Positions 123 through 19,898 of a DNA stretch of 20,000 nt are shown piece by piece. The notes below the pieces were generated by a model. That model had not been told where the DNA came from. It saw nothing but the letters and a program-made list of their open reading frames with translations, and searched no databases. The stretch lies in the IMG/VR virus record IMGVR_UViG_3300007770_000006, one strand, 5' to 3'. Every line of letters begins with the position of its first letter. Position 1 is the first letter of the stretch. The translations under genes and the position numbers were made by a program. The DNA is from an uncultured virus (IMG/VR IMGVR_UViG_3300007770_000006) (taxonomy: Duplodnaviria > Heunggongvirae > Uroviricota > Caudoviricetes).

Positions 123-167
123 GCTGACTCGGCAGCACCACCCATCGGCGCAGACTCAGCGTCGAGA

Positions 168-722
168 CTACAGCTCGCGAACGATCTTCATCAGCTGATC
201 GGTCGCCGGCAGCGCGTTGCTGCCCCAATCGGTCGTGACGCGCTGAGCGTTGTAGGAATACTCGAACCCGTGCTCATCGTGACCGAACGGCAGCGCCAGC
301 CCAGCCTCGGAAACGACCTCCCAGAGATACACATTCATCGTGTTACCGGAAACCGCCATGTAGTGCTGGATGTGCATGGCGAGCCGCGTGACGATCGGAT
401 CGCCGCCCCAGGCAAACGTCTCGGACACGCCCGCAGAGACGGTCGTGGTTCCAGCGCCGAGAGCGTGGCCGAACCGGTCAAAATTCCACTCGATCCCGCT
501 GACCTTCGCCATCACGCTCTGCGCCTGCGTGAACGTGTAGACACTGATCTTGGGGTTGCCCTGCGAGATTGAGCGCTTCTCGCTGGACACCTCGATGGAC
601 ACGCCGTCCTCGGTGATCGAGCCCACGTCGGTTGTGGGCGTCGCGCCGGCCACGCCCATGTAGAGCACGGCGGGTCCAAAGCTGATGTCGTTGGTGGTGA
701 CTGTCGGGACGTTGTACGGCAT
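168..722 (-). CDS. Major tail (tube) protein
   Basis: 184 aa, beta-rich. The N-terminus ISFGPAVLYMG...DVGSITEDGVSIEVS resembles siphophage tail tubes. It has a GAGGA RBS, strongly C/G-biased codons, and lies downstream of the tail terminator. Confidence 0.75.
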   Translation of the reverse strand: MPYNVPTVTTNDISFGPAVLYMGVAGATPTTDVGSITEDGVSIEVSSEKRSISQGNPKISVYTFTQAQSVMAKVSGIEWNFDRFGHALGAGTTTVSAGVSETFAWGGDPIVTRLAMHIQHYMAVSGNTMNVYLWEVVSEAGLALPFGHDEHGFEYSYNAQRVTTDWGSNALPATDQLMKIVREL

Positions 723-791
723 CGGGTGATCCTCGATTCGACGGATTCACCGCTCGCGCCTGATCAGCGTCCCTGGCGGTTGTACGCTTGA

Positions 792-820
792 ACCCTACCA
801 CGAGCCCGCCCCGCCGTCCA
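792..820 (-). promoter_or_regulatory. Putative sigma70-type promoter for the tail tube gene
   Basis: The minus strand reads TGGACG-17 nt-TAGGGT, with a TG extension (GTGGTAGGGT). Confidence 0.5.
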
Positions 821-826
821 GACGGG

Positions 827-1826: not shown

Positions 1827-1829
1827 GCC

Positions 1830-2384: not shown

Positions 2385-5318
2385 TCACCCCTGATTCTGC
2401 ACTCCTGACGCGGGCGCGTCCACCGCGATCGTCTGCTGAACGGTCGGGCCGGCCATCGGCAGACTCTGCGCAGAGTCTGCGAGCGCCGCCGCGGCGGCAG
2501 ACTCAGCGAGATCGATCAGCTCGTCGAGGTTCACGTCCGGCGGCACCGTGGCACCGCGGCGCGCGGCCCCCAGCACGGGCTGATCGGGCGCGTGCTGACT
2601 CAGCGTTTCGACGAGCTGAATCGTGGCGTCGCGCAGCTCGTGCGCCGGGCTCAGACGCTCGGCAGCCGCGGCGAGCAGCTGCCGACCCTTGCGCAAGTGA
2701 TGCAGCGCCGCCTCGCGGAACGGCAGGTAACCGTTGCCCGCGGTGCGCAGCGCGATCTCGTAGCAGCGCCACTGTTCGTCAAACAGCCCGTCATTCCCGA
2801 ACTGCAGCCCGAGCGACACCCACGCGCCCGGGCTTGTGAGCGGCGCATCGCGAATCTGCAGACTCAGCAGCCGGGTGTACCGGACGAGCTTCTGCTGGGT
2901 TGCCGCGTCGCCGCGACTCAGCCCCAGGTGTTCGATGATGAACGGCGCATAGCGCACATTCGGGTGGACGCCGCTCGCGCCGAGTCTCGCGAGCCCGTGC
3001 TCCAGCGTTTCGTGGACGCGACCGTTGAACCGCAAGATTCCGCCGTCGAGCCGGAACATGCGGGTATTCTCGCTCCAGTTGAACGTGCCGCCCGGGCGGT
3101 AGTTTCTGAAGCGGAACATCCATGCCCAGCCGTTCGCACACTCTGCGAGTCTGCGGATCGAAACGAGCGTGGCAAACGCCGGTGCCATGTGTTCGTCGGG
3201 GTCCATGACCCAGCACCAGCCGCACCCGAGCCGGCGCAGCTCGTCGACGCCGGCATTTCGGGCGGCCGCCAGATCGTCGTCGAGCGGGTGCGAGATCCAG
3301 CGCGCGCCGAACCGGGCGGCGATGTATTGCATGTCGTCGGACGGCGCAGAGTCTTCCGGCCCGGTCCAGACGAGCACGATTTGATCGGCCACGCCGTAAC
3401 TAAGATCCAGCCAGCGCATGAGATCGTGGGACTGCTCGCCCGCGTGCCAAAGCATTGTGAGCCCGATCCCGTTGTCGGGACGGTACGCCTGCATGGACAT
3501 GCCCTCCTCGTCGACGAGATGAGCGTAGCCGCCGCGACTCTGCGACGTTCCCTGAGTCAGCATCGCGTCAGGGTTGCGGTCGATCTGCATATAGCGCTGA
3601 TACTTGCGCCGGCGGTCCTGCGGGCGCATGTACCCGTAATGACGCCAGCGCCAAGCGGCGACGCGCTTTGCGTTCTGTCCGGTGTCGGGCACGTTGCCGC
3701 AGTGCAGCCCGATCTCGTTCCCAGCGATGATCTGCTGGTGCTCCGAATGCATCACGCGCCACAGACGGAACCCGCGCATACTCGAAGTCCAGCCGTGCGC
3801 CCACGGAGCGTCGACACGGGCCAGCCGCGGGCTGTCCCAATGATTGATCCAGCCGGTGTCGTAGTGTGTGACCGCGGGATCGGGGTGCCGAGTCAGGCGG
3901 CGCAGGTGTCCGCGGGTGATCCGGTCCTCGGGGATCTCGTCGTGATCGACGCTCAGCATCCAGTCGGGCTGCAGAGTCATGCCGAGCTGAATCGCGGCGT
4001 TCCGCTCGTCGCGCTCGTTCCACGTTTCGGCCCGATGAAGACTCGCGACCGTGTCGACACCCGGCGCTATCTCGGCGAGATACGCATTCAGCGCAGACAC
4101 GATGGACTCAGAATCGGCCGAGTCAGCACACGCGGCGACGAGCTTTGCGTCCGTCGCAGACATGCGACCCCGATCGCTCTCCCACTCCGCGTTCGAGACT
4201 ACGTCTGCGGGGTTGTTCGTCGCGAGAATCGCGATCCCGTCGACAAGCTGCGCGACCCGGCGCAGAGACATCGAGAGCATCGAGACATCCCAGGGAACGT
4301 CCCACTTCATGCGGTAGATCGCGACGACGCGATGATCGCGGTCAGTAGTGGATTCCCACTGCCGCAGATACTCGGCAGCGTTGCCGAGCCCGCGCTGCGC
4401 CTCGGGAAAGTGCGCGTCCAGAGTCTGATGACCCAGGTGATGCACATACGTCTGACCGGCGATCACAAGCCGCCAGCCGGCGTGCTGCGCCCGAACGGCG
4501 ATGTCATTGTCGTCGTAGCCGCCGATTGCGAACGCGGGATTGAGCAGACACGCATCGCCGCTTTCGTCGATGAACAGCATGTCAGCGATGCACGCGCGAC
4601 GGTACACGACACAGAGCCCGGACAGAAAGCTCGCGCTCATGGGGTACGGGTTCCCCTTGCGCGTGAAATCGGCCGCGAAGCGCTCAAGCATACGCGGCCC
4701 GTCGTTCGTGAATGCCGCGCCGTTCGTGAACTTCATATCCGGGGCCGTCACCTTCTGAAGACCACAAACCTCGTTCGAGCACGGGCCGACCATGCCGATC
4801 TTTCCGTACGACTCAGCTGCGCGCGGCGGGGCGGCGTCGCCCGCCGGACCAACCTCCCCCTGCTGAATGATGAATTCGGGATCGAGCGCGTTACCCATGC
4901 GGGCCAGCCAGCCGGTCGTGACGAGAACGTCATCGTTGATGATCGCGACCACTTCGGGCATTCCGTCGACGCACAGCGCGCGAACGCCCGCGTTGACTGC
5001 GCCGGTCCAGCCGGCGGCGGCGGGCAGCTCGACCCAGCGCAGATCCACCGCCGAGTCACCGAATGCGTTGGCACTGTCGACGAGAGCGCCGATCTGACCT
5101 TTCACAATCCCGACGAGCGGAACGGTGGCCGCCACCGGGTTTATCACGATCAGCAGTTGCCAGCTCTGCAGTGTCGTCGCTTCGAGCAGCCGCTGCACAC
5201 AGCCGATCAGCAGCTCGGGATCTCCGACGGTCGGGATCATGACGACCGCTTGGCACTGATCGTCGCCCATGTTGCGAACGTGCGGGGCCGGGCCGCGGCC
5301 CGTTGACTCTGCGCTCAT
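2385..5318 (-). CDS. Multidomain glycosyltransferase: three GT-A/GT2 domains plus a TPR-like C-terminus
   Basis: Domain 1: IPTVG, GWTGAVNAG, INDD, GYDDND, VHHLG. Domain 2: ERNAA, WMLSVDHDE, HYGY. Domain 3: AAARNAG, WVMDPDE, FNGRVHE, IEHLG. Then a TPR-like helix pair AWVSLG...YEIAL. GGAGG RBS. Confidence 0.85.
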   Translation of the reverse strand: MSAESTGRGPAPHVRNMGDDQCQAVVMIPTVGDPELLIGCVQRLLEATTLQSWQLLIVINPVAATVPLVGIVKGQIGALVDSANAFGDSAVDLRWVELPAAAGWTGAVNAGVRALCVDGMPEVVAIINDDVLVTTGWLARMGNALDPEFIIQQGEVGPAGDAAPPRAAESYGKIGMVGPCSNEVCGLQKVTAPDMKFTNGAAFTNDGPRMLERFAADFTRKGNPYPMSASFLSGLCVVYRRACIADMLFIDESGDACLLNPAFAIGGYDDNDIAVRAQHAGWRLVIAGQTYVHHLGHQTLDAHFPEAQRGLGNAAEYLRQWESTTDRDHRVVAIYRMKWDVPWDVSMLSMSLRRVAQLVDGIAILATNNPADVVSNAEWESDRGRMSATDAKLVAACADSADSESIVSALNAYLAEIAPGVDTVASLHRAETWNERDERNAAIQLGMTLQPDWMLSVDHDEIPEDRITRGHLRRLTRHPDPAVTHYDTGWINHWDSPRLARVDAPWAHGWTSSMRGFRLWRVMHSEHQQIIAGNEIGLHCGNVPDTGQNAKRVAAWRWRHYGYMRPQDRRRKYQRYMQIDRNPDAMLTQGTSQSRGGYAHLVDEEGMSMQAYRPDNGIGLTMLWHAGEQSHDLMRWLDLSYGVADQIVLVWTGPEDSAPSDDMQYIAARFGARWISHPLDDDLAAARNAGVDELRRLGCGWCWVMDPDEHMAPAFATLVSIRRLAECANGWAWMFRFRNYRPGGTFNWSENTRMFRLDGGILRFNGRVHETLEHGLARLGASGVHPNVRYAPFIIEHLGLSRGDAATQQKLVRYTRLLSLQIRDAPLTSPGAWVSLGLQFGNDGLFDEQWRCYEIALRTAGNGYLPFREAALHHLRKGRQLLAAAAERLSPAHELRDATIQLVETLSQHAPDQPVLGAARRGATVPPDVNLDELIDLAESAAAAALADSAQSLPMAGPTVQQTIAVDAPASGVQNQG

Positions 5319-5344
5319 TTCACCTCCAGGGGCGTGTCTGCACA

Positions 5345-5357
5345 GACTGTATCACCG
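5345..5357 (-). promoter_or_regulatory. Putative extended -10 promoter CGGTGATACAGTC upstream of the glycosyltransferase
   Basis: Exact 13-bp copy of 9557-9569. Contains TG-A-TACAGT. Confidence 0.55.
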
Positions 5358-5375
5358 CGCGTCAGCGCGGGCCAA

Positions 5376-6005
5376 TCATGTGTCTCTGCGGGTCAGACTC
5401 AGCGTCCAGTGAGCTGCAGACACGCCGAACCCGATCCGGGTTTCCTGCACAGACTGAATCAGCCACTCATCGCCCGACACGGGCTCGATCACGATGTCGC
5501 CGACACGCGGTGTCCAGACTTCCTCGTATCCGATCAGAACGTCGAACGAGCCCGACTCGTGGGTGCCGGATTTCGCCGCTCGCCAGTTTGCGCCGCCACG
5601 CTGACGAAACAGCGCCGGCCGGCCCGTCGCCACGGCGGTTCGCTGAAGCTGCGCGCCGCCGTCTGCTCCGACCGTCGAGATCGCAACCGTCGGCGGCGAC
5701 GATTCATCGTGCAGACCCGCTGTCGCGATCGTGGGCGTCGTTCCGGCCTTCCATCGGCCGGTCGTCTGCTGCGCCCCGTTGCCGGTGAACGTCAGCGACT
5801 CGACCTGCGCCGAGTCGTCGGGCGCTGTTCCAGTGATCGTGACCGATCCGGTTCCGTCTGTGCCGCCGGCGATCTCGACTTGCAGAAAGCACTCGGCCCG
5901 GATCTCTCTGTCCAGAGTCATCGCCGCCGCCGCAGTCGCAGCGTCGAGAACGAACGCAGAGCGCCGATACACGTCCAGATAGCGATTCGCTGAGCTGAAG
6001 ATCAT
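5376..6005 (-). CDS. Probable head-closure/head-tail joining protein with an inserted Thr/Gly-rich beta domain
   Basis: ATG 6005 overlaps the upstream TGA. The C-terminus PRVGDIVIEPVSGDEWLIQSVQE...HWTLSL fits the SPP1 gp16/lambda FII stopper pattern. Confidence 0.6.
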   Translation of the reverse strand: MIFSSANRYLDVYRRSAFVLDAATAAAAMTLDREIRAECFLQVEIAGGTDGTGSVTITGTAPDDSAQVESLTFTGNGAQQTTGRWKAGTTPTIATAGLHDESSPPTVAISTVGADGGAQLQRTAVATGRPALFRQRGGANWRAAKSGTHESGSFDVLIGYEEVWTPRVGDIVIEPVSGDEWLIQSVQETRIGFGVSAAHWTLSLTRRDT

Positions 6006-6577
6006 GATTCGGGCTCTGTCTGTTTGATTCCCCAACCGTCCCGGCCGGGCTTCTCGATGAACATAGAGTGACCGCGCAGATACTCGCTATGGTACGGCAA
6101 TTCGTAGCAGTCTGCACGACACGCGGCGGCCTGCCATGATCGCCAATGCCACAGCTTGAACCGCGAGATCGAGCGGATCGGGCATCGCGGAACGTGCCGA
6201 TACTTGACGAATTCGTGCGCCGGCTCGCCGCGCTGTGCCCAGCCAACGCGCCGCTCGCTCGCTTCGATCTCGCCGCTCGGACGGAGCACCCAGATCACCG
6301 CGAGCCCGTCGACGGGCGGCAAGTGGTGCAGCATAAACGTAAGACCCGGGGCCTGTAGCACCCACGGGCGCTGCTCAGCGAGCAGCCGAGTCAGCACGTC
6401 CACGCGGCTGACTCGGATCGCAGACTCGTCGACGAAATCCCGGCCGAGTGTTGCGGCCAGCGCTTTCGCCGAGAACGTCGTCCCGCTACGCTGCGGGCCG
6501 GTCACGATGATTTGACGTGTCGGGCCGAGCGACGAACGGATCTCGTCGAGAGTGCGAAGCGTGCGCGGCGCGCTCAT
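6002..6577 (-). CDS. Sulfotransferase-family (PAPS-binding P-loop) protein
   Basis: IIVTGPQRSGTTF matches the 5'-PSB loop and VIWVLRPSGEIEAS matches the 3'-PB motif. ATGA-coupled on both sides. Confidence 0.65.
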   Translation of the reverse strand: MSAPRTLRTLDEIRSSLGPTRQIIVTGPQRSGTTFSAKALAATLGRDFVDESAIRVSRVDVLTRLLAEQRPWVLQAPGLTFMLHHLPPVDGLAVIWVLRPSGEIEASERRVGWAQRGEPAHEFVKYRHVPRCPIRSISRFKLWHWRSWQAAACRADCYELPYHSEYLRGHSMFIEKPGRDGWGIKQTEPES

Positions 6578-7089
6578 TCGGTGCCGTCGCTCTGTGCCGC
6601 CGTAGCGGGCGCAGGTGCGGCGCTGACCGGCTCGCGCTCTGCTGTCGCGGGCTCGGCCCGGGCGGCCCGCTTGATCGGGCGCTGCAGCCGCTCAGCGGGC
6701 CGCCAGCCGCCGTCGCTGAACGTCTCGAAGATCAGGCCCGGCCGCACCCGCATCGGGCCGTCGACCCGATACACGGTGTCGGCGTCGCCGGCGTCGCCGG
6801 CGGCGCGCGGCCCGCTGTCGAGCTGAAGCGCGATGCGGCCGCGGCACGGCCGCGGCAGTCGCAGCAGCTCGCGCAGCTGTGCGGCATCGCCCCACACGAT
6901 CTGGCACCCCTGCTCGCGCAGACGGATCGATCCGCTGTCAGCGATCCGGAACGCCGAGCCGCGGCCCGTGCGCGGGATCGCGGCGTCGCCGCAGCGAACG
7001 GCGACGAGCGGAGCAAAGTGAACGCCGAGGATCGCTGCCTCGGGCGCGTCAGGTGCGGGCAGAAAGCCGAACAGAGCATCGCGGGACAT
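6574..7089 (-). CDS. Hypothetical protein (171 aa)
   Basis: ATG 7089 with an AGGGG RBS directly after the dehydratase stop. Its own stop overlaps the sulfotransferase start. Confidence 0.55.
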   Translation of the reverse strand: MSRDALFGFLPAPDAPEAAILGVHFAPLVAVRCGDAAIPRTGRGSAFRIADSGSIRLREQGCQIVWGDAAQLRELLRLPRPCRGRIALQLDSGPRAAGDAGDADTVYRVDGPMRVRPGLIFETFSDGGWRPAERLQRPIKRAARAEPATAEREPVSAAPAPATAAQSDGTE

Positions 7090-7091
7090 GG

Positions 7092-8476: not shown

Positions 8477-9051
8477 GGCGCAGAGTCGCGCGGAATGATC
8501 CGAGTGTAGCCGGCGAGCATCGATCGCACCTGCGCCGGAACCTCGTCCGGGTCGGCGCTGTAGCGGTAGCCCGCGCCCGACTCGCTACGCATTCCAGCGT
8601 GTCTCGACGCATTGAACCACGACGCCGCCCAGACGGTCGCAGCGTGTGCCAGCGTGTTCAGTCCGGGCGATGCCGCCGTGTGACCCGCCGTGTAGACGAC
8701 CGAGACTTTTTGTGCGCCCTGCGTGAAGAATCGTCCCGAGCCCGTGCGACGAACGAAACCCGTTCGCGAGTCGAGATACCACGCCGTCTGTGCAAGCGTT
8801 GTTCCTGCGTCGACGACTGACGCGACCTCGGCGACCGGGAAGCATCGCAGCGCGATCTCGTTCTGCCCAGCCCCCTCGATGTCGAATGCGTGCGTGTGAG
8901 TCGCCCACGTCAGCGTCGGCTGACCGCAATACGCCAGAATCATGTTGTCGACTGCGTCGGCCAGCTCTGCGATGTATGCGTCGTGCATTGTGATCGCTGC
9001 CGGAATTCCCAGCGCGCGCTTGACTCGCGTGGTAGACGTGAGATCAGCCAT
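8473..9051 (-). CDS. Head-tail connector/adaptor (gp6/gp15-like)
   Basis: LTSTTRVKRALGI...DAYIAEL...YCG, VSVVYTAG and VPAQVRSMLAGY match the adaptor pattern. GAGG RBS. Confidence 0.8.
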   Translation of the reverse strand: MADLTSTTRVKRALGIPAAITMHDAYIAELADAVDNMILAYCGQPTLTWATHTHAFDIEGAGQNEIALRCFPVAEVASVVDAGTTLAQTAWYLDSRTGFVRRTGSGRFFTQGAQKVSVVYTAGHTAASPGLNTLAHAATVWAASWFNASRHAGMRSESGAGYRYSADPDEVPAQVRSMLAGYTRIIPRDSAP

Positions 9052-9538
9052 CGCAGATCACCGCCTCGTGGAAGCGCGGCCCGCGCTTGTAGCGATAGTC
9101 CCGCGTCGACGTGCCCGCGTTGACTGTCGCGATCCCGCGCTGATTCAGCATCTTGATCGACGTGCGCCACTCGCTGTCGGCGATGCCGGTCGCTGACACG
9201 ATCTCGGCTTTCGTCATCCAGTCGTCTGTCAGCGTTTCGACGATCTTGCGCTGACTCGGCGTCGAAACGCGCGGGCGCAGACTCTGCAGATACTCGAACC
9301 ACTCGGCGCTGACATCCACCCAGCCGGTGCGCAGGCCCCGCTCGCGTGTCGACGGCTTCGAGCAGAACACCGTATGACGGCGCGGTTCGCCGGGCAGAGC
9401 GAGCGACAAAGACTCGCGCGATTCTTCATACCCGATCAAGTCGATCGGGTGCGAGTCGCGCTCGACGATGAATCGCTGGTACTGCAGGACGTACCGGTAC
9501 GTCCCGACGTTCGGCGGCTTACTGGACATCGCAGGCAA
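9044..9538 (-). CDS. Hypothetical protein with a C-terminal winged helix-turn-helix
   Basis: SQRKIVETL...MTKAEIVSATGIADSEWRTSIKMLNQRGIA plus a beta wing. The start is TTG 9538 (GGGGG RBS) or ATG 9529. Confidence 0.6.
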   Translation of the reverse strand: MPAMSSKPPNVGTYRYVLQYQRFIVERDSHPIDLIGYEESRESLSLALPGEPRRHTVFCSKPSTRERGLRTGWVDVSAEWFEYLQSLRPRVSTPSQRKIVETLTDDWMTKAEIVSATGIADSEWRTSIKMLNQRGIATVNAGTSTRDYRYKRGPRFHEAVICDG

Positions 9539-9654: not shown

Positions 9655-10650
9655 TTACGAGGCGTCGAGCCCGCCGAGCACCGCCGATCCCTTGGTGTTC
9701 GCGTGGACGAGCGCGAGATCACCGAAGATATCGAACTGCTCGAACTGCGAGTCATCGCGGGCCAGAGGCATCATGGTCATCGGGGTCAGCTCCTCGATCC
9801 ATACGTGTCTCCGATTCACGACCGCGATCGCGGTGGTCGGGTTGCTCGACTCGCCGGACAGCGCTGTGATCGCGGTGCCGCTCCACGTCAGGTCGTCGGG
9901 CATTCCGGTGGACACGACGACCGGAACGCCGTCGTAGTCGCGAACGCGGAACCCGGCGGCGATCTCCACCATGTTGACGAAACGCTGGCGACTGTCCAGC
10001 GCTGCGTTGATCTTCCGGCCGCCCTTGAAGGAGCAGTAGATCACGAGGTCGGAACGGTTGCCCGCCCCCTTGACGGTGTCGATCGTCTCGTCGAGCTTCG
10101 AGAGCGACAGCGAGTCGCCGGCGGGCGCGCTCGTCTGTGCGACGACCTGCCCGCTGACCGCGTTGGTCAGCGTCAGCAGACCGTCGATCTGGTCGGAGAT
10201 CGCGGCGCTGTCACCGATGAACAGAGCGGACTCCAGCGACTCGTTCCAGTCGTCCGCTTTCTGCACCATCTCGTCGGCGAGCAGATCGACGTAGGACCGG
10301 CCGATGGCCCGCATCTTCCGGGTGATCTTGCCGCGGGTGGCGAGAGTCTGGTAGGTGAACGTCGCCTGGGTGTGCGTACCCGTCGACTCGGTCAGCGAGT
10401 CGGTGTCGGCAACCCAGACGTTCGCGGCGGTCATCGTCGAGCCGGCCCGGCGATTTACGACCGCCTGACTGCCGCTGCCCGGTTTGCGCTGCAGCGTGGC
10501 ACCAGCGCCCTGTTCCCGAAGAACGAGCTGCTGGATGATCCGGTTCGTGAAATTCTGAACGAGAATCGAACCAGCGCCGGACACGTTGATCGCGCGCTCG
10601 AACCGCTCTCGGCGGGTGGGGTCCAGTCCGGCCCAAGCTGGGGTCGTCAT
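9655..10650 (-). CDS. Major capsid protein (HK97 fold)
   Basis: 331 aa following the protease/scaffold. Motifs ESALFIGD, IDGLL and YDGVPVVVS. AGGAG RBS and strongly optimised codons. Confidence 0.85.
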   Translation of the reverse strand: MTTPAWAGLDPTRRERFERAINVSGAGSILVQNFTNRIIQQLVLREQGAGATLQRKPGSGSQAVVNRRAGSTMTAANVWVADTDSLTESTGTHTQATFTYQTLATRGKITRKMRAIGRSYVDLLADEMVQKADDWNESLESALFIGDSAAISDQIDGLLTLTNAVSGQVVAQTSAPAGDSLSLSKLDETIDTVKGAGNRSDLVIYCSFKGGRKINAALDSRQRFVNMVEIAAGFRVRDYDGVPVVVSTGMPDDLTWSGTAITALSGESSNPTTAIAVVNRRHVWIEELTPMTMMPLARDDSQFEQFDIFGDLALVHANTKGSAVLGGLDAS

Positions 10651-12224: not shown

Positions 12225-12253
12225 CGTGTACCACCGAACTCGCAGACGTTCAA
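12225..12253 (-). promoter_or_regulatory. Putative promoter for the protease/capsid genes, overlapped by an inverted repeat
   Basis: The minus strand reads TTGAAC-17 nt-TACACG with a GGTGG extension. Inverted repeat TTGAACGT (12220-12227) / ACGTTCAA (12246-12253). Confidence 0.45.
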
Positions 12254-14667
12254 GCGTCCGGGCCGCCGGGTGCCAGCTCGGACAGCTTGATCGCCGCCCC
12301 AGCGTCGATCTCGCGCTTTGTCCAAAACACGAGAACACACCGACAACGCCCTACGCAGAATGTGTCCTCACCGGGGCGGCGCGAGAGCTGCGAGATCGCC
12401 CGGAACCCCTGCGAGCCCTCGTCCCGACAGATCGGGCAAGTCTTGCCGCCCGCGTTTACCCACTCGCACCACCACTCGACGGGCGAGCCGTCCTGCTGGC
12501 TTGCGGTCTGGTTCAAAGCGTCGACCAGAACGCTGTTCGCCAGTCCGACCATGCGGCCCGACCAATTGTCGATTCGGTGCGCTTGCGCCGTCAGCGACAG
12601 CTCCAGCGTCGATAGCGCCCGCTCGGGCGCAGCGTCGGGCGTCAGATCGTCGATCCGGTCGCGCGTCGAGTCTGCGACGCAGCAGCCAGCCGAGTCGGCG
12701 GGCGCGGCGCTACGCTCGCCGATGGTCAGTGCTGACACGGTGCGGCGGCACTCTGTGCGCAGCGTTCCGATCAGACCGTCGGGATCTGTCAGATAGGACA
12801 TCGCCCGCTCGTGATACGACTCGGCGCGCGCGGCCGGGTCGATCTGCGTCACGCCGCCGGCGATCGTGTCTGCGCTATCGGCGGCGAGCTGTGCGGCCCG
12901 CGCGTACAGCGGCGCAGACAGCGCAGACCAGCCCGCCGCGAAATCGTCGAGTCGCGAGAACATGCGCTCCAGCGTCGAGTCGGCCTCGGCCGGCGACAGC
13001 CGGTCATCGCCGCCGTAGCCCTGCGCGAGCAGAACCTGCAGATCGGCGACCGTGTCGGCATACAGCCCGGCGATCCCGCGGGTGTAGTCCGCGACGGCGT
13101 CGCCGAGCGCGCGAACGTCGATCACGCGGTACGGGTCCCACCGCCCGGCGTCGGGCCAGTCGCTCGGCAGACCCGAGCCGCGCGCGGCCCGTGAGAGCTG
13201 CGCTCGCAGCTGCACGAGCTGCGCTCGATCGGCAGCCGTCAGCGGGCGCAGGCTGCCGCTGCCGCGCTCGGGCGACTTGCGCCCGCCGTCAGCAGCGCCG
13301 CCGCTGTCAGCGGGCGCGGGCGAGCCGGCCGCGATGTCGGTCAACGGGCGCGGCCCCTCGTTCGTGTCCATCACTGCGACATCGCCGCCGGGGACCGGCA
13401 GTAGCCCGAGATCGGCGCGCGCCTCGTTGACCGTAATGATCCCGCGGCGCACCCGAACGTCCTGAGCTTTCGCAAGCGATAGCCGCTGATCCGGCGTCAG
13501 CGGCTGATCCCGATCGAACCGGAACGCGATCGACGCCGCGTCCGACCCGAACATCAGCGGCACGATCTGCGCGTTGATCCGGGCCTGTACCAGCTCCAGT
13601 ATCGGCGTGATCAGGTGGCTCGACGACACGTCCACCTGCACGGTTGCACTCGCTCTCGGCACGCCCTCGAAAACACCCAGCTCCACGGGCATCACGCCGA
13701 ACGTGCGCCAGATCGTTCGGCGCATGTTGTCGACGACCTCGATCATCGAGAGATCTTTGGGCGTGTGTCGCAGCTCGACCCAGTCTGCACGAATTCCCGC
13801 GGGCTGCGGGCTCGTGATTACGCGCAGCTTGTGATCGCGTCCGCGCATTTGCTGCAAGTCGGCGCGGGCGCGCTCAGCAGCAGCACCGGCGACGCCGCCC
13901 ACGACGAGCAGTCCGGGCGGGATCTCGTTCGCGTCGAGAGCGAGCATCGCGTGCTCACTTGCGAGCAGAACGGTAACGCACTCGTCAACGAGAGTGTCGA
14001 GCAGCGGCATACCCAGCGGCCCGCGATTGTTGCGGAACAGCGAGAAATAGACCATGCGTTCCGGCATGAGCTTAGCCCCGCTCGCAGCCCCGCCCTCCTT
14101 GTGTTGTTCGTACCGCAGCAGCATCGATCGCTCATCGTAGATCGGCAGCCATTCCGAGCCGAGCCACGGCACGATCTCGGCGAGATCTGCGCCGGGTACG
14201 TTCAGCTCCCACGCGCCGGCATCATACAGCAGCAGATCCGTCCCGGTGCGAGTCATCAGCTCCTGCCATGTTTCACCGTTTGCGTTCGGCACAGCGAGCC
14301 AGCGCTGCCCGGCGTCTGCACGCCCGCGGAGTCGCCGGTATTCGGCTGCGTCGCGCGGGTCGGTCTGAACCTCGAACGACCAATTCCACGTCGCGATTCT
14401 GCGCACGATACTGTCGACACACGCACGAACGTCCGGGCTCGTCTTGTAGAGCTGCCAGTATTGCACCGGCAGCAGATTTCGGTCCACGCGATGCTGAGAC
14501 ATGCCGAGCGCGGCGATCGGATGCCCATACCCGCCGAGCCCGAGACGCGATCGCGCAGACTCAGGCGGCCCGCCGCGGCCCGAGAACCACAGCCCGCCAG
14601 CACCGCGCGAATTGCGTGGGCCGACTGAGAGCGGGGCGGGTGCGAGAAGTGTGATCGGAGCGGACAT
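12250..14667 (-). CDS. Portal protein fused to a MuF/SPP1 gp7-like minor head domain
   Basis: HK97-type portal motifs VRACVDSI, PLGMPLL, FGVMPVELG and GIITVNEARADLGLLPVPGGD. C-terminal KTCPIC...GRCRCVLV is the MuF signature. ATG 14667 has a GGGAGG RBS. Confidence 0.85.
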   Translation of the reverse strand: MSAPITLLAPAPLSVGPRNSRGAGGLWFSGRGGPPESARSRLGLGGYGHPIAALGMSQHRVDRNLLPVQYWQLYKTSPDVRACVDSIVRRIATWNWSFEVQTDPRDAAEYRRLRGRADAGQRWLAVPNANGETWQELMTRTGTDLLLYDAGAWELNVPGADLAEIVPWLGSEWLPIYDERSMLLRYEQHKEGGAASGAKLMPERMVYFSLFRNNRGPLGMPLLDTLVDECVTVLLASEHAMLALDANEIPPGLLVVGGVAGAAAERARADLQQMRGRDHKLRVITSPQPAGIRADWVELRHTPKDLSMIEVVDNMRRTIWRTFGVMPVELGVFEGVPRASATVQVDVSSSHLITPILELVQARINAQIVPLMFGSDAASIAFRFDRDQPLTPDQRLSLAKAQDVRVRRGIITVNEARADLGLLPVPGGDVAVMDTNEGPRPLTDIAAGSPAPADSGGAADGGRKSPERGSGSLRPLTAADRAQLVQLRAQLSRAARGSGLPSDWPDAGRWDPYRVIDVRALGDAVADYTRGIAGLYADTVADLQVLLAQGYGGDDRLSPAEADSTLERMFSRLDDFAAGWSALSAPLYARAAQLAADSADTIAGGVTQIDPAARAESYHERAMSYLTDPDGLIGTLRTECRRTVSALTIGERSAAPADSAGCCVADSTRDRIDDLTPDAAPERALSTLELSLTAQAHRIDNWSGRMVGLANSVLVDALNQTASQQDGSPVEWWCEWVNAGGKTCPICRDEGSQGFRAISQLSRRPGEDTFCVGRCRCVLVFWTKREIDAGAAIKLSELAPGGPDA

Positions 14668-14694
14668 AGGGGCCTCCCACGGCGAGATTACCAC

Positions 14695-14985
14695 CTATCG
14701 GCGAGCGCCGCCCGGAACGACAAGGCGCGCGAGTCTGCGCGCGAGCCCACCCGCAGACTCGTTCGGCTCGGCGACCGGTACGCCGAGAATCGGTGCGATC
14801 ACGCTCGCAACGAACCGCCCGGCGCGCGACTCTGCGTCACGCTCGCCCTGTCTGTACGCATCGCTGAGCGCCGCCGCGAGCGCGTCGATTTGCGCCGGCG
14901 ATGCGCGCTCGACGAGCGAGCGCAGCTCGGGCGAGCCCGCAGACACCGCGCCGAGTCTGTGCAGCGCAAGTGCTGACTCAGTCAT
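14695..14985 (-). CDS. Small hypothetical protein (96 aa)
   Basis: ATG 14985 overlaps the end of terL and has a GGGGAG RBS. Fills the terL-portal gap. Confidence 0.5.
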   Translation of the reverse strand: MTESALALHRLGAVSAGSPELRSLVERASPAQIDALAAALSDAYRQGERDAESRAGRFVASVIAPILGVPVAEPNESAGGLARRLARLVVPGGARR

Positions 14986-16648
14986 GATAGCTCCCCTGCA
15001 TGTCCAGCAGCGACTCGGCCACGCGCGAGTATGCGTCGCTGAATCTGTAGTGATCAGCAGACCGTCCGCTATCCCATATGAACCCGTCGCCGTTTCGGTT
15101 CGATACACGCTTCGGCGCGGTCATCTGTTGCGACCAGCCGCGACTCTGCCAAACGTCCTCGGGCCACGTTCGCGACGGCGGGTCGTGCTGAATGTCTGCG
15201 AGCGTCGCGTCCAGTAGCTGCGTTCTGTCGACACGCACGACGTGGCGGTTCCAGTCCTGCATCATTCCGAAATCTTGCGCGCTGACTCGCGGCGTTTTGT
15301 GAAACTCACAGAGCCACACGTCGGACACGCCCGACGCGATCGCGCGGTCGCGCAGCTCCTGCGACTTTCGCGCCTCGGGCCGAGCGTCGATCACCGCAAC
15401 GTCCACGCAGTAGCGGACGAGCATGTCATAGATATCGTTGAATGACGACACCTCTCCTGTCCAGATTCCGCGACGCTTTCTGCGCAGCGTTGTCTCGTCG
15501 ATCTCTGATACGCAAATGTCCACGTTCAGCACGTTTCCGACATCGATCCCGGCGACGACCTGACAGCGTCGCAAGTGTTCACCGCCGGCGTGGTCTGTAG
15601 GCGGCGCGGTAGCTGCACGATGCAGCAGATCTGTCGACACGCTGCTGCCCGCTGGGGCGTACGGCAGGCCGAGCACACCGGCATAAAATGCAGTCATCTT
15701 GTCCGGGTTGCCCTGAGCTTCGATCCACTCGTCGAACAGATCGCGCAGGTTCTCGCTCAGCACGTCCATTCTGCAGACGTGATAGCCGCGGCGTGGCCGA
15801 TCTGGCCGTGTCTGCACCCACTGCCCACCGCCATCTCTGCGGTCCCACGGGCGTCCGCAGCGCAGACACACGGGCCGAACCGTTCCGTGGTCTGAGCGCG
15901 CAGAGTCACGCAGAACCCAGCGCCCAGCGTCGTCCCGGTCGACTATGTGCAGGAACCAGTCGATCTGCTGCCGCTCGCCGCAGCGGCTGCAGCGGTGGAA
16001 CCACTCGCGGCCGTCGCTGATGTCGAACAGCTCGCTAATGCCGCGGCCCGGGATCGTCGGGTTGCTGACTCTGAACAGCTGCGGGCTATCGCTGGCGCGC
16101 AGTCGGTCGCGGGCAAACGAAAGATTCGTCTGGTCGCAGCGATCATACTCGTCGACAACCAGCACGTCCGCGCTAAACTCGATGAAATCGTTAACGGCGT
16201 TCGAGCCGAGGAACAACAGAGCGCCGCGGCCGAATCGTTTATGGCGCAGACTGCCGGGATCGTCGGACGGAACCAGCGCGCGGTATGCCGGGACGGTCAT
16301 CTTGTCATCGCCGCCGAGCAGCGACACGACACGGCGTCGAACAAACCGATCCCGCAGCTGATAGCTCGGCAGCACGTAGCCGCAGATTCGCCCGGCCCAG
16401 CCGGCCCGCTCCAGAACGAGCTGAATCAGATACTCGGACCAGCCGACCTGAACGCACTTCATCGCGTCGAATCCGTCGATCTTTGGCCCGTCCGTATACA
16501 GCTCGATCAGATACGGCCGGTTCTTGAACGACATGGGCTGACCGCGCGTATTGCGATGGTGCATCAGCGAAAGGCCGAGCAGCGGGTATTCCTCGGCGAG
16601 TCTGCGCACAATGCTGGACGTGGGGGCCGCCTGTTTGTCCAGATTCAT
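14978..16648 (-). CDS. terL: Terminase large subunit, GpA family
   Basis: KCVQVGWSE (Walker A), LVVDEYD (Walker B), VSNPT (coupling motif), CSRC/CLRC zinc finger, and nuclease motifs GIDVG and DHYRFSDAY. ATG 16648 with a GGAGG RBS. Confidence 0.9.
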   Translation of the reverse strand: MNLDKQAAPTSSIVRRLAEEYPLLGLSLMHHRNTRGQPMSFKNRPYLIELYTDGPKIDGFDAMKCVQVGWSEYLIQLVLERAGWAGRICGYVLPSYQLRDRFVRRRVVSLLGGDDKMTVPAYRALVPSDDPGSLRHKRFGRGALLFLGSNAVNDFIEFSADVLVVDEYDRCDQTNLSFARDRLRASDSPQLFRVSNPTIPGRGISELFDISDGREWFHRCSRCGERQQIDWFLHIVDRDDAGRWVLRDSARSDHGTVRPVCLRCGRPWDRRDGGGQWVQTRPDRPRRGYHVCRMDVLSENLRDLFDEWIEAQGNPDKMTAFYAGVLGLPYAPAGSSVSTDLLHRAATAPPTDHAGGEHLRRCQVVAGIDVGNVLNVDICVSEIDETTLRRKRRGIWTGEVSSFNDIYDMLVRYCVDVAVIDARPEARKSQELRDRAIASGVSDVWLCEFHKTPRVSAQDFGMMQDWNRHVVRVDRTQLLDATLADIQHDPPSRTWPEDVWQSRGWSQQMTAPKRVSNRNGDGFIWDSGRSADHYRFSDAYSRVAESLLDMQGSYHD

Positions 16649-17862
16649 CGCTTCCTCCGTCTGACCCGGTTTCGCTTGCGCGTGACGTTGACTCGCGGCG
16701 GGCGCTGTTTGCCGCCGGGCGTGACGATGAATCGCTCGGCCAGCCCTCGCGACATCGTCGGGCCGCAATACTCGAACACTGCACACGGGCGGCCGCCAAA
16801 GTCGCTTGATCCCGACTCGCCCTCTCCCTCTCTGTATCTGCGCGCCTTCGCGTTCTTGTTCGGCGCATTCTTCAGCGAAGACTCTGCACTCGAAATCAAC
16901 CGCCAGTGCGGGCTTCTCATGCAGGCCGCCACATATCCCGGGTGTGCCGGGTAGTCGCGAAACCGCCACCCGAACGCCTTGTAGGCTGCGCCGAGCGCAT
17001 CATTCAGCACAAACGAAAGCCCGAGCCCCTGCCAGTCGGGCAACACTACCGTCCGGGTCATTCGGATCAGATCCTTCGCTGACCAGTGCGGGAAGATTGC
17101 GATCCCCGTGAAGCCGACCGGACGGGCTACGCCGTCAACGAAAACGCCGTAATACTCCCCATATGGGAGCGTCGAGGTCAGATAGTGAAACGGTGCAAAC
17201 CGCGCCCACTCGGCACGATCCACTCGGGCGATCCCAACGTCGAATCGTGGTCGGGGTTGAACCGACCTCCAGCTAAAGGACATTGTCTCTGGCTCCAGTA
17301 CCCAATCGGGCCTGAGCCAGTCCACCACGTCATAGTGACAGGTCACGGCGACGAACCGCCGGCCGTTTCTGCGCGCCCACTTCTGCACGGCGTGCGATCC
17401 GATCTTGGCGACTTGCCGATCTACCACGCTCGTAAACTCGTCGACGACGACGGGATCTGCAGACTCGCAGAGTCTGCGGGCAAGCTCGACGCGGAACCGC
17501 TCGCCGTTCGACAGAACGTGGAACGGGCGCAACCACGCCGGGATCGTGTTGAACCCGACGGCGCTGCACGCTTTCGTGATTGTCTCGACATCGAGAGACG
17601 GCGCAAAGTCGTCCACGACGCTCGGCGCGCTCCAGCTAAGCTCGGCCGGCTCGCCAAACAGATCGCGCATGATTGTGCTCTTTCCAGAGCCGCTGGGTCC
17701 GACGATCAGGCCGACGCTCCAGTCCCGCTCGGCGAGCGGAACATCGCCCGACCACGAGCGCTCGCACTTTTCCGCCGGCGGAACGTCGAACATACTGCAC
17801 ACCTGACGCGCGCGCATACTCTCGGACAGGGGCGTAGAGACTACGACATTAACGGTTGGCAC
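16645..17862 (-). CDS. ABC-type ATPase fused to a GNAT (Mom-like) acetyltransferase
   Basis: GPSGSGKS (Walker A), LSNGE (ABC signature), VVVDEF (Walker B) and VTCH (H-loop). Then FAPFHYL and RTVVLPDWQGLGL (acetyl-CoA binding). No membrane partner. GTG start at 17862. Confidence 0.8.
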   Translation of the reverse strand: MPTVNVVVSTPLSESMRARQVCSMFDVPPAEKCERSWSGDVPLAERDWSVGLIVGPSGSGKSTIMRDLFGEPAELSWSAPSVVDDFAPSLDVETITKACSAVGFNTIPAWLRPFHVLSNGERFRVELARRLCESADPVVVDEFTSVVDRQVAKIGSHAVQKWARRNGRRFVAVTCHYDVVDWLRPDWVLEPETMSFSWRSVQPRPRFDVGIARVDRAEWARFAPFHYLTSTLPYGEYYGVFVDGVARPVGFTGIAIFPHWSAKDLIRMTRTVVLPDWQGLGLSFVLNDALGAAYKAFGWRFRDYPAHPGYVAACMRSPHWRLISSAESSLKNAPNKNAKARRYREGEGESGSSDFGGRPCAVFEYCGPTMSRGLAERFIVTPGGKQRPPRVNVTRKRNRVRRRKR

Positions 17863-18407
17863 TTGAATCCCTCGGATTCGAGTCTCTGAATCATCGCGCT
17901 TTGTGCAGACTCGCTGTCGACCTCGACGAGCACTCGGAATTGCAGACTCGCGCCGCCGCCCGACGCAGACTCGCCGGGATCGTCGATCTGCCCATCCAGC
18001 GCGCGCAGATACTCGCCCATCTCGTCTTCCCAGCCGGTCGCCGCGATCAGCTCTGCATCGCAGTCGCGCAGAGCTACGAATGTTTCCTCCAGCAGATCGC
18101 CGTCCCACTCGGCAATCTCGCCAAGTTTGTTGTCGGCGAGAGCGAGCGCCCGGAACTGCGCGTCCGTCAGATCCATGAATCGAACAGGCACCCGCTCAAG
18201 CCCGAGGCGGCGCGCCGCCGTCCAGCGCGTGTGACCGGCGATGATCGTTCCGTCTGTGCGGGCGACGATCGGCGACGCGAACCCGAATTGGGCGATGCTC
18301 TGCGCGACCGGCTCGACGGCGTCATCGTTGATCCGCGGGTTGTCCTCCCACGGGCGTAGCTCGTCCGGGTGAACATAGACGGCGGCGGCTTCGCGCTGCC
18401 GAGTCAT
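17841..18407 (-). CDS. ParB/Srx N-terminal domain protein (phage type)
   Basis: LRPWEDNPR, SIAQFGFASPI, IIAGHTR and LADNK. ATG 18407 is coupled to the upstream TGA. No methyltransferase domain is attached. Confidence 0.85.
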   Translation of the reverse strand: MTRQREAAAVYVHPDELRPWEDNPRINDDAVEPVAQSIAQFGFASPIVARTDGTIIAGHTRWTAARRLGLERVPVRFMDLTDAQFRALALADNKLGEIAEWDGDLLEETFVALRDCDAELIAATGWEDEMGEYLRALDGQIDDPGESASGGGASLQFRVLVEVDSESAQSAMIQRLESEGFKCQPLMS

Positions 18408-18748
18408 CGCCGCCGCCGGGTCGCAGACACTGCGCCGTCCACGGGCGTTCGCTCGGGCCGTGGCTGCAGACTGATCAGAGTCAGCGTCTGGTAGACGTGA
18501 CCGTTCCCCGACCGCCACACGCGCTGCCGAAAGCCGACGCCGTCGAGCTGCACGCGGCCCGACAGCGACTGCGACGCGATGTCGAGCAGCTGCTGCAGAG
18601 TCTTGCGATCGAGCAGCATTCGCACGTCCTGCCCAGACAGCGGGCCGCCGATCGTGTTCTCGCCGATCTTTGCGTCAAGGCCCGCGCGCGGGCCAGCGGC
18701 CGAGCCGTGCTCGACAATTGCGCCCGGCGGGCGGAACAGATCAGCCAT
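18404..18748 (-). CDS. Hypothetical protein (114 aa)
   Basis: ATG 18748 with a GGGAG RBS overlaps the end of terS. The stop is coupled to the ParB start. Confidence 0.55.
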   Translation of the reverse strand: MADLFRPPGAIVEHGSAAGPRAGLDAKIGENTIGGPLSGQDVRMLLDRKTLQQLLDIASQSLSGRVQLDGVGFRQRVWRSGNGHVYQTLTLISLQPRPERTPVDGAVSATRRRR

Positions 18749-19898
18749 CGTCACTCCCAACGTCGACGACTCGCGCCGGGATCGCGCGCAGAATCGCCTG
18801 GATCTCGTCTGTCTCGACGCGCATCGCGTCGAGCAACGCTGGGCCGCCCCGCTCGCGAGCGTCACGCATTCGCGTCGACTCGACGACTGCCACTCTGTGC
18901 TCGTGCGTGTGTGTCGACTGAACGGCGATCTGCTCAGTCGGCAGCCCGGTGATCAGCGCCCGGGCTTTCAGCAGTGCAGGGATATCGCTAACCTTTACGT
19001 CGATCTTGCCCGACGCGACGCGCTTTGCAATCAGTCCGAGCGTGCCGTCGATCAGCTGAATCTGGCGCCGTATGTCTGCCGGCCGTAGATGATTTCGCAG
19101 CGTCGACTCGTGCAGCGTCGCCATGTACCGGTTCGGGTTCATGGTCGATAGCTCAGAATCTGACAGCGGTGTGCGGAACACCGCGCTGGGATCTGACGCG
19201 CCGGGATCGCGCGGCCCGCTGCGCCCGGGAGGTGGCGGCGCGTCAGCGGGTGCTGGCGGCGTCCCGGGCCGTTCCGGGTGCTCTGACATAGGGGCGGGGT
19301 CTGCGCCCTGCCCAGCGGCGCGCTGAGCCGTCATATGCGGCCCGTCTGCTCGCGGCGTTCCGGGCTTGTCTGTCGGCACGATGTCGTGGGTCGGTGGGCC
19401 GGCGGGCAGCCCCTGCCGCTGTGCTGCGACCGCGTGCCGCAGCCGGGCCGACCCGGTGTCGGCCAGCACGACATCGAGAGCGAGTCTTAGCGCGGGCGTC
19501 GTGATCACCTCGTGATCGTGCAGATCCATCAGCTGACGAAACGCGGCGAGCGCAACCCAGTCCGGATCGGCGACGCAGACTCGGCGTCGCTCCCACCCGT
19601 GCTTTCTGCGCCAGTAGCGCATCGTCCCATCGCTGATCGACATCGCGACCGCGATTCGCCTGATGCTGCGCCGGGCCTGCATACAGTAGAGCAGAAACGC
19701 AGCATAAGCCCGATCCGACTCTTTCTCGCGCGGCCGCATCGGCTCGGCGAACCGGCCGAACACCTCGCGATTCTGCGAGCTGTCGATCGTCGGCACAGAC
19801 AGAGCGACCCGCCGAGCTGCGCGGCGCGGTGCCGACTCGCTGCTACCCTCTGACGCGGCCGACGATCCCGGCTGCGTCGACTCGTTCGGCGCATTCAT
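18741..19898 (-). CDS. Probable terminase small subunit (N-terminal HTH, long Pro-rich insert)
   Basis: ESDRAYAAFLLY...RSIRRIAVAMSISDGTMRYWRRKHGW forms an HTH. Helical oligomerisation-like C-terminus. Heads the packaging operon. Confidence 0.6.
   Translation of the reverse strand: MNAPNESTQPGSSAASEGSSESAPRRAARRVALSVPTIDSSQNREVFGRFAEPMRPREKESDRAYAAFLLYCMQARRSIRRIAVAMSISDGTMRYWRRKHGWERRRVCVADPDWVALAAFRQLMDLHDHEVITTPALRLALDVVLADTGSARLRHAVAAQRQGLPAGPPTHDIVPTDKPGTPRADGPHMTAQRAAGQGADPAPMSEHPERPGTPPAPADAPPPPGRSGPRDPGASDPSAVFRTPLSDSELSTMNPNRYMATLHESTLRNHLRPADIRRQIQLIDGTLGLIAKRVASGKIDVKVSDIPALLKARALITGLPTEQIAVQSTHTHEHRVAVVESTRMRDARERGGPALLDAMRVETDEIQAILRAIPARVVDVGSDDG

Follow-up and report, generated by a model that had tools for sequence, protein, structure and literature searches.

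Why does one 8-bp word recur so often in the genes of an uncultured phage, and what might read it? The window, by which we mean the whole 20,000-nucleotide stretch of DNA analyzed, is the head/tail module of a marine phage with a genome of ∼78 kb. It contains 27 exact copies of GCAGACTC, 20 on the plus strand and 7 on the minus strand, between positions 150 and 19582, a recount that agrees with the original prediction. About one copy had been estimated by chance, and dinucleotide shuffles of the window (n = 200) gave a mean of 1.45 (standard deviation, 1.20; maximum, 5). Markov models of orders 1 to 3 expect 1.4, 1.8, and 4.5 copies; orders 4 to 6 expect 13.6 to 25.3, high values because the octamer itself inflates them. 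The exact copies begin at the following positions:

Plus strand: 150, 2459, 2497, 2858, 6420, 7660, 8274, 9277, 10739, 11360
Plus strand, continued: 11780, 12023, 12110, 14555, 14753, 17459, 17905, 17942, 17965, 19575
Minus strand: 2473, 3147, 7179, 12668, 14731, 16598, 17470

The enrichment also survives a codon-preserving null model, the check that had been named for it. Synonymous-codon shuffling of 18 window genes, one of them misframed, gave 2.75 copies versus 24 observed (500 shuffles; maximum, 8), and the same shuffle of 51 phage genes with corrected calls gave 4.8 versus 37 (7.7-fold; 200 shuffles; maximum, 11). Our phage-wide counts cover 52.7 kb of the genome, of which ∼7 kb was never seen. 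They include 54 copies, split 22:32 between the strands and using all six frames, ∼13-fold over the order-2 expectation and about 990 to 1,020 per Mb, or ∼1 per kb. Each full 4-kb bin of the 52.7 kb holds two to seven copies. Spacing is overdispersed (gap CV, 1.29), with no sign of regularity and no helical-phase periodicity.

The octamer belongs to a small family of words. One-mismatch variants had been listed before, and they are indeed present, but the list missed the commonest in the window, C>G at position 6 (18 copies); position 7 contributes 17 copies and position 3 contributes 11. Phage-wide, the position-7 variant is the second most abundant form, with 41 copies versus 5.0 expected (24 versus 3.3 under the synonymous shuffle). 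It breaks GANTC, and this abundance argues against the earlier suggestion of a GANTC methylation target. Counted together, the octamer and its position-3, -6, and -7 variants average one site every 320 bp. The variants that show strong enrichment differ by transversions, with no halo of transitions, and A>G neighbors are underrepresented at both position 3 and position 5. By hand calculation, the opening and closing triplets of the octamer are linked ∼4-fold beyond what their shared core explains (48 versus ∼12), and shorter words are already 1.4- to 2.2-fold over the synonymous shuffle. The octamer is not self-complementary, and copies overlap on both strands 13 times versus ∼14.5 under independence (hand calculation), with no dyad excess. 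We rejected a homodimer model with an 11-bp dyad on these numbers; there may be a weak dyad preference. The octamer behaves as an asymmetric word that is read on either strand, with no dyad.

How does the word sit in genes? The codon-preserving nulls, the use of six frames and both strands, the rare codons, and the altered proteins all support a DNA-level signal, as the original prediction held. Its frame readings were right (ESA at 10739; SL at 2858, 9277, and 17942; RVC at 19575; ADS at 2473), as were the rare codon use and the lack of exact copies in the capsid and tail-tube genes. The proposed confinement to linkers and accessory genes did not hold, since copies also lie in the genes for the large terminase subunit (TerL), the portal, the protease/scaffold, and a conserved glycosyltransferase:

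168..722, minus strand: tail-tube-like protein, no exact copy
2385..5318, minus strand: glycosyltransferase (GT2-like), 5 exact and 11 variant copies
2459..2504, both strands: clustered octamers at the C-terminal end of the glycosyltransferase, which is not conserved there
9655..10650, minus strand: major capsid protein (SU10/HK97 type), without the octamer or its main variants
10729-12180, minus strand: putative protease/scaffold gene, 5 exact copies; role from position, no family match
12250-14694, minus strand: portal gene, 2 exact copies
14978..16648, minus strand: TerL (gpA type), 1 exact and 6 variant copies

In the glycosyltransferase cluster, overlaps between copies on opposite strands make up two 11-bp inverted units in tandem, and a third exact copy lies there as well. 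Octamer positions are moderately less conserved than average (52% versus 64% amino-acid identity to the nearest orthologs). Among 61 sites aligned with orthologs, one falls in a gap and only four keep all of their amino acids. The ortholog words mostly differ from the octamer at 3 to 5 positions, in some cases by double transversions that yield AGA codons, and ESA, DSA, and ADS occur 11, 11, and 12 times in the phage versus 1, 1, and 0 times in the orthologs of one relative, G004. In TerL, which is 75% identical to its ortholog, the copies arose by substitution. At the level of aligned sequences, this shows that the octamer was built by point substitution, mostly altering amino acids.

The nearest relative, G003 (capsid 83% identical), has two copies in 42 kb, and the complete relatives G004, G005, and G006 have 0, 0, and 6 (versus 6.5 expected for G006). 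The octamer is absent from 45 of 49 other related loci and present once in the remaining 4. By comparison of genomes, it is shown to be private to one lineage of the phage family, the close relatives examined having no enrichment. We found no cultured relative in 50,697 phage records, where DNA and capsid searches gave no match and TerL matches reach only 25 to 27% identity. Zero substitutions were seen among contigs from 4 runs.

The lineage stands apart in other ways. Its dinucleotide signature and substitution spectrum are sharply unlike those of the sister lineage. Eleven 6-bp palindromes occur at 0 to 2 copies in the phage versus 9 to 57 expected, and the set of avoided restriction-type palindromes differs between the two lineages. 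Substitution flux is context specific, with C>G in one context (143/260) and C>T in another (52/120), the latter creating Dam-type sites. This C>T flux does not favor CC contexts, so deamination of methylated CC words was rejected as sole source. A similar shift in favor of Dam-type and GANTC words is seen in G006, which lacks octamer enrichment. The phage encodes three methyltransferases, including a C5 enzyme and a second N6/N4 enzyme. The C5 gene has lower GC, retains the avoided sites, and carries no exact copy and one variant copy of the octamer; from its sequence, it looks recently gained.

We tentatively favor, at a probability of roughly 0.4, the reading that selection has made the octamer and its position-3, -6, and -7 variants into a word recognized by a DNA-processing or defense factor of the host, a word that is Chi-like in function and was acquired when the lineage moved to a new host and faced heavy restriction. 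The host factor would recognize the octamer asymmetrically, whichever strand carries it, and every copy would confer a small benefit, as Chi tempers the resection of broken DNA by RecBCD/AddAB. The lineage would have changed host, the new host would be rich in restriction systems, and the octamer would have been favored by aiding the survival and repair of cut or exposed phage DNA. Several observations are consistent with a host-read word: its genome-wide, frame-independent, lineage-private spread on both strands; the avoided palindromes and shifted signature; the scarcity of the word in the recent-looking C5-methyltransferase gene; the presence of the candidate phage readers in relatives without it; and the sister words of unrelated elements described below. 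On the other side, neither host nor reader has been found, and the phage encodes its own Sak4-like recombinase.

How close is the parallel with Chi? Studies of phage Chi (Bobay et al. 2013, PMC3784561; LLS and MD8, PMC12315714; P1, bioRxiv 10.1101/2021.07.08.451572) describe sites that, like the octamer, are asymmetric, lie inside genes, can top a phage's word list, and can be denser than in the host. Pseudomonas Chi is the top octamer of phage MD8 and the 43rd of its host (PMC12315714), and the 50 Chi sites of P1 are found on both strands (bioRxiv 10.1101/2021.07.08.451572). Our word shares the Chi-type features of being short, asymmetric, and overrepresented beyond codon usage (37 versus 4.8). 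However, its sequence is unrelated to Chi, and its ∼13-fold enrichment compares with ∼2.5- to 3-fold (median for lambdoid phages, 2.4- to 3.1-fold). The Chi-rich phages described so far have oriented or terminally clustered sites, whereas the octamer is mixed and evenly spread, with neither pattern in the 22:32 split over the 52.7 kb counted, in which genome ends were not located. The octamer is not among the proteobacterial Chi motifs described in the cited part of PMC8022716. Canonical Chi is at background in the phage genes (3 versus 4.6), and its raw counts are 52 in G003 and 126 in G005. The apparent swap is weak because the relatives' canonical Chi is just 1.5- to 3-fold over the synonymous shuffle, with neighboring words about equally enriched, and we rejected Chi replacement. 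One family site per 320 bp also seems to exceed what a saturating protective role would need.

Chromosomes rich in the octamer did not turn up in any of our searches. Triple-motif scans covered 185,579 GTDB species genomes, where they gave 63 loci, and JGI metagenomes, where they gave 75; no locus has dispersed enrichment in phage-like DNA. These scans detect high density only, with ∼1.2 hits per Mb at phage density (hand calculation) and a yield that falls as the cube of octamer density. Among 301 Planctomycetota, selected only as a guess for a survey at low density, the octamer reaches ∼36 per Mb versus ∼990 in the phage, and it is not enriched in 76 alphaproteobacterial stretches. In a viral pair scan, the phage's own contig alone was enriched among the at least 120 loci listed. 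Cluster names, Atlas taxa, and methyltransferase homologs were uninformative for host assignment, and a literature search by topic, rather than by the letters of the word, found no description of the phage group or of such a word.

Two unrelated elements, G317 and G320, which share no gene with the phage, have sister 7-mers as their top words, enriched 8- to 16-fold, the G320 figure being inflated by a local repeat and duplication. All three sister words occur in the phage; G317 has the position-7 form only, and G320 has the other two only. Chance convergence is possible because both elements came from a scan for the octamer. A broader proposal, which we regard as doubtful, is that unrelated phages and satellites under heavy restriction independently write sister 7- to 8-bp words into their genes, at 1 to 3 per kb, that host chromosomes do not carry. 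A DNA-scanning factor, so far undescribed, would read their density as a pass-mark, the words would form a class of phage-side self-tags separate from both Chi and uptake sequences, and the three sister words would be dialects of one system.

Could the reader instead be encoded by the phage? A genome-coating, packaging, modifying, or self-sparing nuclease system, in which more sites would mean more protection or control, is unlikely on balance but the most durable of the alternatives to a host factor. It fits a lineage-private word that no chromosome carries in the scans made, and the ∼7 kb beyond the part of the genome seen leaves it room. The candidates considered include products of the following genes:

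9044..9529, minus strand: C-terminal winged-helix (wHTH) protein, AlphaFold pLDDT 94 (alignment-based)
16645..17862, minus strand: ABC-ATPase/GNAT fusion (ABC-GNAT), predicted DNA-base-modifying enzyme
17459..17477, both strands: overlapping octamer copies inside the ABC-GNAT gene
17841..18410, minus strand: ParB N-terminal-domain protein, 3 exact copies in the C-terminal part; ortholog in G006
18741..19898, minus strand: terminase small subunit (TerS), orthologs in relatives examined

ParB, wHTH, and TerS had been put forward in the original prediction; all three have orthologs in relatives without the octamer, and ParB and wHTH, lacking co-occurrence support, were rejected as readers. The wHTH protein has weak matches only (E above 0.001), to MarR/ArsR/CodY-type wHTH, and is an unlikely reader because relatives without the octamer have a wHTH with a conserved recognition helix. 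Stoperators of mycobacteriophage L5 are oriented with transcription, and in parS/ParB systems, the sites are palindromes that lie in clusters and ParB has an HTH that reads DNA. Like stoperators and parS or half-parS sites, the octamer is a short word with many dispersed copies in one replicon. Neither comparison, both proposed earlier, carries further: copies are 14 sense and 23 antisense in called genes, which all lie on one strand, there is neither clustering nor the dyad excess of parS (13 versus ∼14.5 overlaps), and the phage's two ParB-like proteins match ParB_N only, with no HTH detected. The candidate regulators, moreover, are common to relatives without the word.

ABC-GNAT proteins of this type are predicted to acylate DNA bases (PMC7824862), but ABC-GNAT was rejected as a reader: none of 78 other carrier loci is enriched (maximum, 3 exact copies), and G006 carries ABC-GNAT, ParB, and a methyltransferase homolog without octamer enrichment. 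The C5 methyltransferase, which looks recent and lacks co-occurrence support, was also rejected. An HNH nuclease, a PLD-like nuclease, a Dda/RecD-like helicase, and the second N6/N4 methyltransferase were not found in the relatives examined, in keeping with a phage-encoded reader. Of these, the Dda-like helicase was rejected: its homologs are ≤35% identical, and the octamer is not among the top octamers of their loci. A phage-encoded reader must also contend with sister words in elements that share no gene with the phage.

A third reading, to which we give rather little weight, is that the word belongs to a host lineage missing from databases, was written by a DUS- or HIP1-like drive, and was inherited through long residence in that host. 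Its anatomy fits DUS/USS best. As in temperate phages (PMC6776037), copies occur at ∼1 per kb on both strands in permissive coding positions; the word is also asymmetric, alters proteins, and is scarce in a gene that looks recently acquired. However, ∼1,020 per Mb exceeds the ceiling of ∼750 per Mb reported for USS in temperate Pasteurellaceae phages (PMC6776037), and no chromosome carrying the word turned up in the high-density scans. Cyanobacterial HIP1 and alternate HIPs (Elhai 2015, PMC4390886) resemble it in frame independence, an invariant central adenine, and a Dam-type-rich genome. The HIP1-like origin suggested earlier is nonetheless disfavored, as the octamer is not a palindrome, varies at positions 3, 6, and 7 and not at its ends, and is found in a phage rather than a chromosome (none in the scans made, the host not being identified). 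No cognate was identified among the three phage methyltransferases. The strong overall composition shift of the phage, and the lack of a recognized DNA polymerase among the ORFs scanned, would suit residence in such a host. Against it stand the GTDB, JGI, planctomycete, and alphaproteobacterial results above, and the evidence for lysogeny is limited to a short serine recombinase (232 aa) common to the phage and its relatives; none of the records seen includes flanking host DNA.

Finally, an origin without any reader, in which context-dependent mutation and escape from restriction sites left the word behind, is improbable: the context-specific flux, the enriched shorter words, the depleted A>G neighbors, and the overdispersed spacing would suit it, but it does not account for 27 copies against an order-3 expectation of 4.5, the coupled ends, the transversion variants, ortholog words 3 to 5 positions away, or the similar Dam-type/GANTC shift of G006 without the octamer.

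If the favored host factor is a resection or defense enzyme, the octamer would be a Chi-equivalent for a lineage without a known one; according to PMC8022716, Chi-type motifs in most Proteobacteria must differ from that of E. coli. The octamer offers a concrete probe, as pull-down bait, as a recoding target, and as a possible marker linking uncultured phages to hosts. A force able to rewrite terminase, portal, and other core proteins in a single branch of this phage family suggests an as yet unrecognized step of infection in which DNA is read.

The octamer GCAGACTC occurs in 27 exact copies in the window, 20 on the plus strand and 7 on the minus strand, just as the original prediction had counted, and the reading frames it assigned to the copies were correct on recheck. 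The enrichment is real and strong. In 200 dinucleotide shuffles of the window the octamer averaged 1.45 copies (maximum 5), and Markov models of order 1 to 3 expect 1.4-4.5. On called genes we used a synonymous-codon shuffle, which leaves each protein unchanged; here the octamer counted 24 against 2.75 expected in 18 window genes (one of them misframed) and 37 against 4.8 (maximum 11 in 200) in 51 genes of the larger phage. The excess therefore survives the codon-preserving null by which that prediction had proposed to challenge it, as well as Markov models up to order 3.

The window spans a tailed phage's module for packaging, head and neck.

Genes of the module, all on the minus strand
TerS
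ParB-N protein
ABC-GNAT
gpA-type TerL
portal
capsid
adaptor
RmlB-like enzyme
glycosyltransferase
terminator
tube

It is 100% identical across 14.7 kb to G002, a record of the same phage; G002 plus the remainder of the window gives 52.7 kb (here F). The window also continues into a second record, G312, bringing coverage to 70.8 kb, and the longest contig of the genome is 77.8 kb. All six runs with the window sequence are marine or seawater metagenomes from two studies, each a possible source, and DNA and protein searches of phage records found no cultured relative. Glycosyltransferase, RmlB-like and sulfotransferase-like genes lie within the neck module (window 2385-8090, L053:14207-14818), with RmlC elsewhere, and virion glycosylation is possible; the sulfotransferase is putative, a label we assume from reading the sequence by eye, without a family match. 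At two non-coding spots (window ~19935-19960, G002 23360-23400) a short inverted motif built on a TATA core is repeated; it may be a promoter or operator. A similar word has nine copies in the unrelated locus L482. After the tail module comes a trio of DUF6744-like, MoxR AAA and VWA genes (L550:14408-18464).

The octamer is dispersed. F has 54 copies (strands 22:32), with 2-7 in each full 4-kb bin, and in called genes all six frames are used (sense 5/6/3, antisense 15/1/7). Three single-change variants are strongly enriched, all of them transversions: T>A at position 7 (41 copies against 5.0 expected), C>G at position 6 (31 against 4.3) and A>T at position 3 (20 against 4.4). The position-6 variant is also among the top words of the 18-kb tail region (13 vs 1.7). 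Position 5 is almost always adenine, and 52 of the 54 copies follow directly on a pyrimidine. Together, octamer and variants form a family of 164 sites in F, with a mean gap of 321 bp (CV 1.29) and no helical phasing seen. Thirteen sites overlap an opposite-strand site, forming an 11-bp inverted unit; since a hand calculation from 261 core loci and 123 oriented family sites gives ~14.5 such overlaps under independence, the octamer appears to behave as an asymmetric site, each strand probably being read separately.

The word is limited to one lineage. Among 49 related loci from other phages, which overlap each other so that counts are not independent, 45 have no octamer and four have one copy. 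The nearest relative, G003, with an 83% identical capsid, has two copies in 42 kb; G004 and G005 have none in 79 and 75 kb. A synonymous-shuffle scan covered 12 relatives; their best dispersed octamers had z scores of 10 or lower, against 14 in the present phage. A separate, strand-biased octamer (18 vs 0.7, 17:1) in the relative G314 (L555-L557) is promoter-like.

Within this lineage the word arose by substitution. When 61 family sites were aligned to their nearest orthologs, a gap occurred at one and all amino acids were kept at four; the counterparts mostly differ at 3-5 positions, and identity is 52% at family sites vs 64% elsewhere. ESA, DSA and ADS occur 11, 11 and 12 times in the phage vs 1, 1 and 0 in G004 orthologs, and family sites take up a third of all its TCT and AGT codons. 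The capsid gene has no copy of the word. Exact copies are also absent from a lower-GC C5-methyltransferase gene that keeps avoided restriction-type sites, and because of this one case we weakly suggest that the word needs residence time to build up in a gene. That gene (L054:6024-7533), which has a short ORF after it, seems to have been captured recently from a bacterium.

How does the octamer compare with known words? It differs in a defining property from each of Chi, HIP1, stoperators and parS, although in function it may work like Chi or an uptake-type tag. Canonical Chi sites number 52 in G003, 126 in G005 and 3 in G002; under the synonymous shuffle their excess in relatives is 1.5-3x, with neighbouring words about equally enriched. 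Earlier papers warn of false-positive Chi-type words in GC-rich genomes (PMC8022716) and report a median Chi O/E of 2.4-3.1 in Chi-rich phages (PMC3784561) and oriented or terminal sites in such phages (PMC12315714; bioRxiv 10.1101/2021.07.08.451572). In phage MD8 a host signal is the top octamer though it is 43rd in the host (PMC12315714). Our literature searches, run on terms other than the octamer's letters and with supplements outside their scope, found no account of it. We regard the octamer as a further form of dispersed self-tag that falls outside the named families.

Most likely, at roughly 40%, the octamer has been selected as a mark read by a host factor that spares marked DNA, by analogy with Chi. 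A host DNA-processing or defence factor would read it on either strand and treat octamer-marked DNA more gently, as Chi does, so that the octamer would be selected.

It is somewhat unlikely that the phage encodes its own reader. ParB, wHTH and TerS had been proposed for this role; the genes are indeed present, but as readers they are unsupported, with orthologs in relatives without the octamer. The two ParB-like proteins match ParB_N only, and the 9044-9529 protein, with a confident predicted fold (pLDDT 94) and weak wHTH matches, has a recognition helix conserved across homologs. The predicted role of the ABC-GNAT fusion is base acylation (PMC7824862). None of the 78 other loci with the gene (80 of the 221 matches were kept) is enriched in the octamer, and the related phage G006 carries the gene without the octamer standing out (6 copies vs 6.5 expected). 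What favours a phage-encoded reader is a set of genes that turned up in none of the relatives examined (an HNH, a PLD-like nuclease, a Dda-like helicase and a second N6/N4 methyltransferase), together with the 7 kb of genome beyond the sequence covered.

An uptake or HIP-type drive from an unsequenced host is less likely still. The literature reports USS up to about 750 per Mb in temperate Pasteurellaceae phages (PMC6776037) and a palindromic HIP1 linked to methyltransferases (PMC4390886). Three-site pattern scans of GTDB (63 loci) and JGI metagenomes (75 loci) returned local repeats as the many-copy loci and no dispersed signature in phage-like DNA. By hand estimate, ~1.2 matches per Mb would be expected from a genome as dense in the word as the phage, and because yield drops with the cube of density the scans rule out dense hosts only. 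The octamer reaches up to about 36 per Mb in 301 Planctomycetota vs about 990 in F, and is at or below expectation in 76 of 80 alphaproteobacterial stretches (1.43 Mb; four shorter than 4 kb left out). In Streptomyces contigs (L321 and others, ~25-40 kb, two labelled plasmids) it is a half-site of a 17-bp inverted repeat, present twice in tandem in a module often found again 3-4 kb off (L321:10001-10048, 13591-13638), an arrangement that resembles an operator or resolution site.

An IMG/VR pair scan for the word gave 45 loci, most high counts being tandem repeats. Related words stood out in elements unrelated to the phage.

Elements with sister words
G317 (L560-L562): a complete phage of 48 kb that carries PolA and a GcrA-family gene
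G320 (L566): satellite-like islands, two in tandem, capsid with Hyphomicrobiales homologs

In G317 the top 7-mer (70 vs 4.4, strands 43:27, evenly spread) spans positions 2-8 of the position-7 variant, and neither of the two forms that contain GANTC occurs; in its relative G318 (L563) this 7-mer is again the top word (15 vs 1.3). G320 has the other two (19 and 25 vs 2.5, 8-10x), counts partly due to a local peptide repeat and the island duplication. F has all three (69/10.5, 45/12.2, 37/10.5). No genes are common to F and these elements at E 1e-3, and all avoid restriction-type palindromes, 21 of 6 bp in G317. G317, too, has a pair of AAA and VWA genes. Since it was a search for the word that led to these elements, the sister words may have converged by chance, private words being carried by many phages.

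Least probable is a mutational by-product, although the substitution spectrum of F is unlike its sister's. At third codon positions, ancestral CCA underwent C>G in 55% of cases in the F lineage (143/260) vs 8/72 in the sister. Ssp-type phosphorothioate systems target CCA and are a possible cause of this flux. 

For the leading reading, the host-read mark, the composition of F counts as well. Its dinucleotide signature is unlike its sister's (CG 1.42 vs 0.84), and Dam-type sites reach 12.6 per kb against 0.8. Eleven 6-bp palindromes are nearly absent from F (0-2 copies vs 9-57 expected), which we take to include NarI, AatII, XhoI, SacI, MluI, ApaI, SphI and ApaLI sites, and the relatives' avoided sets partly differ. 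Each member of the phage family (the whole phage, G003, G313-G315 and L023) avoids its own set, which suggests that the hosts carry many type II restriction systems. Because its composition, substitution spectrum and avoided palindromes differ from those of its relatives, we infer that the F lineage changed host, under heavy restriction, where a selected mark such as the octamer may have had a protective role.
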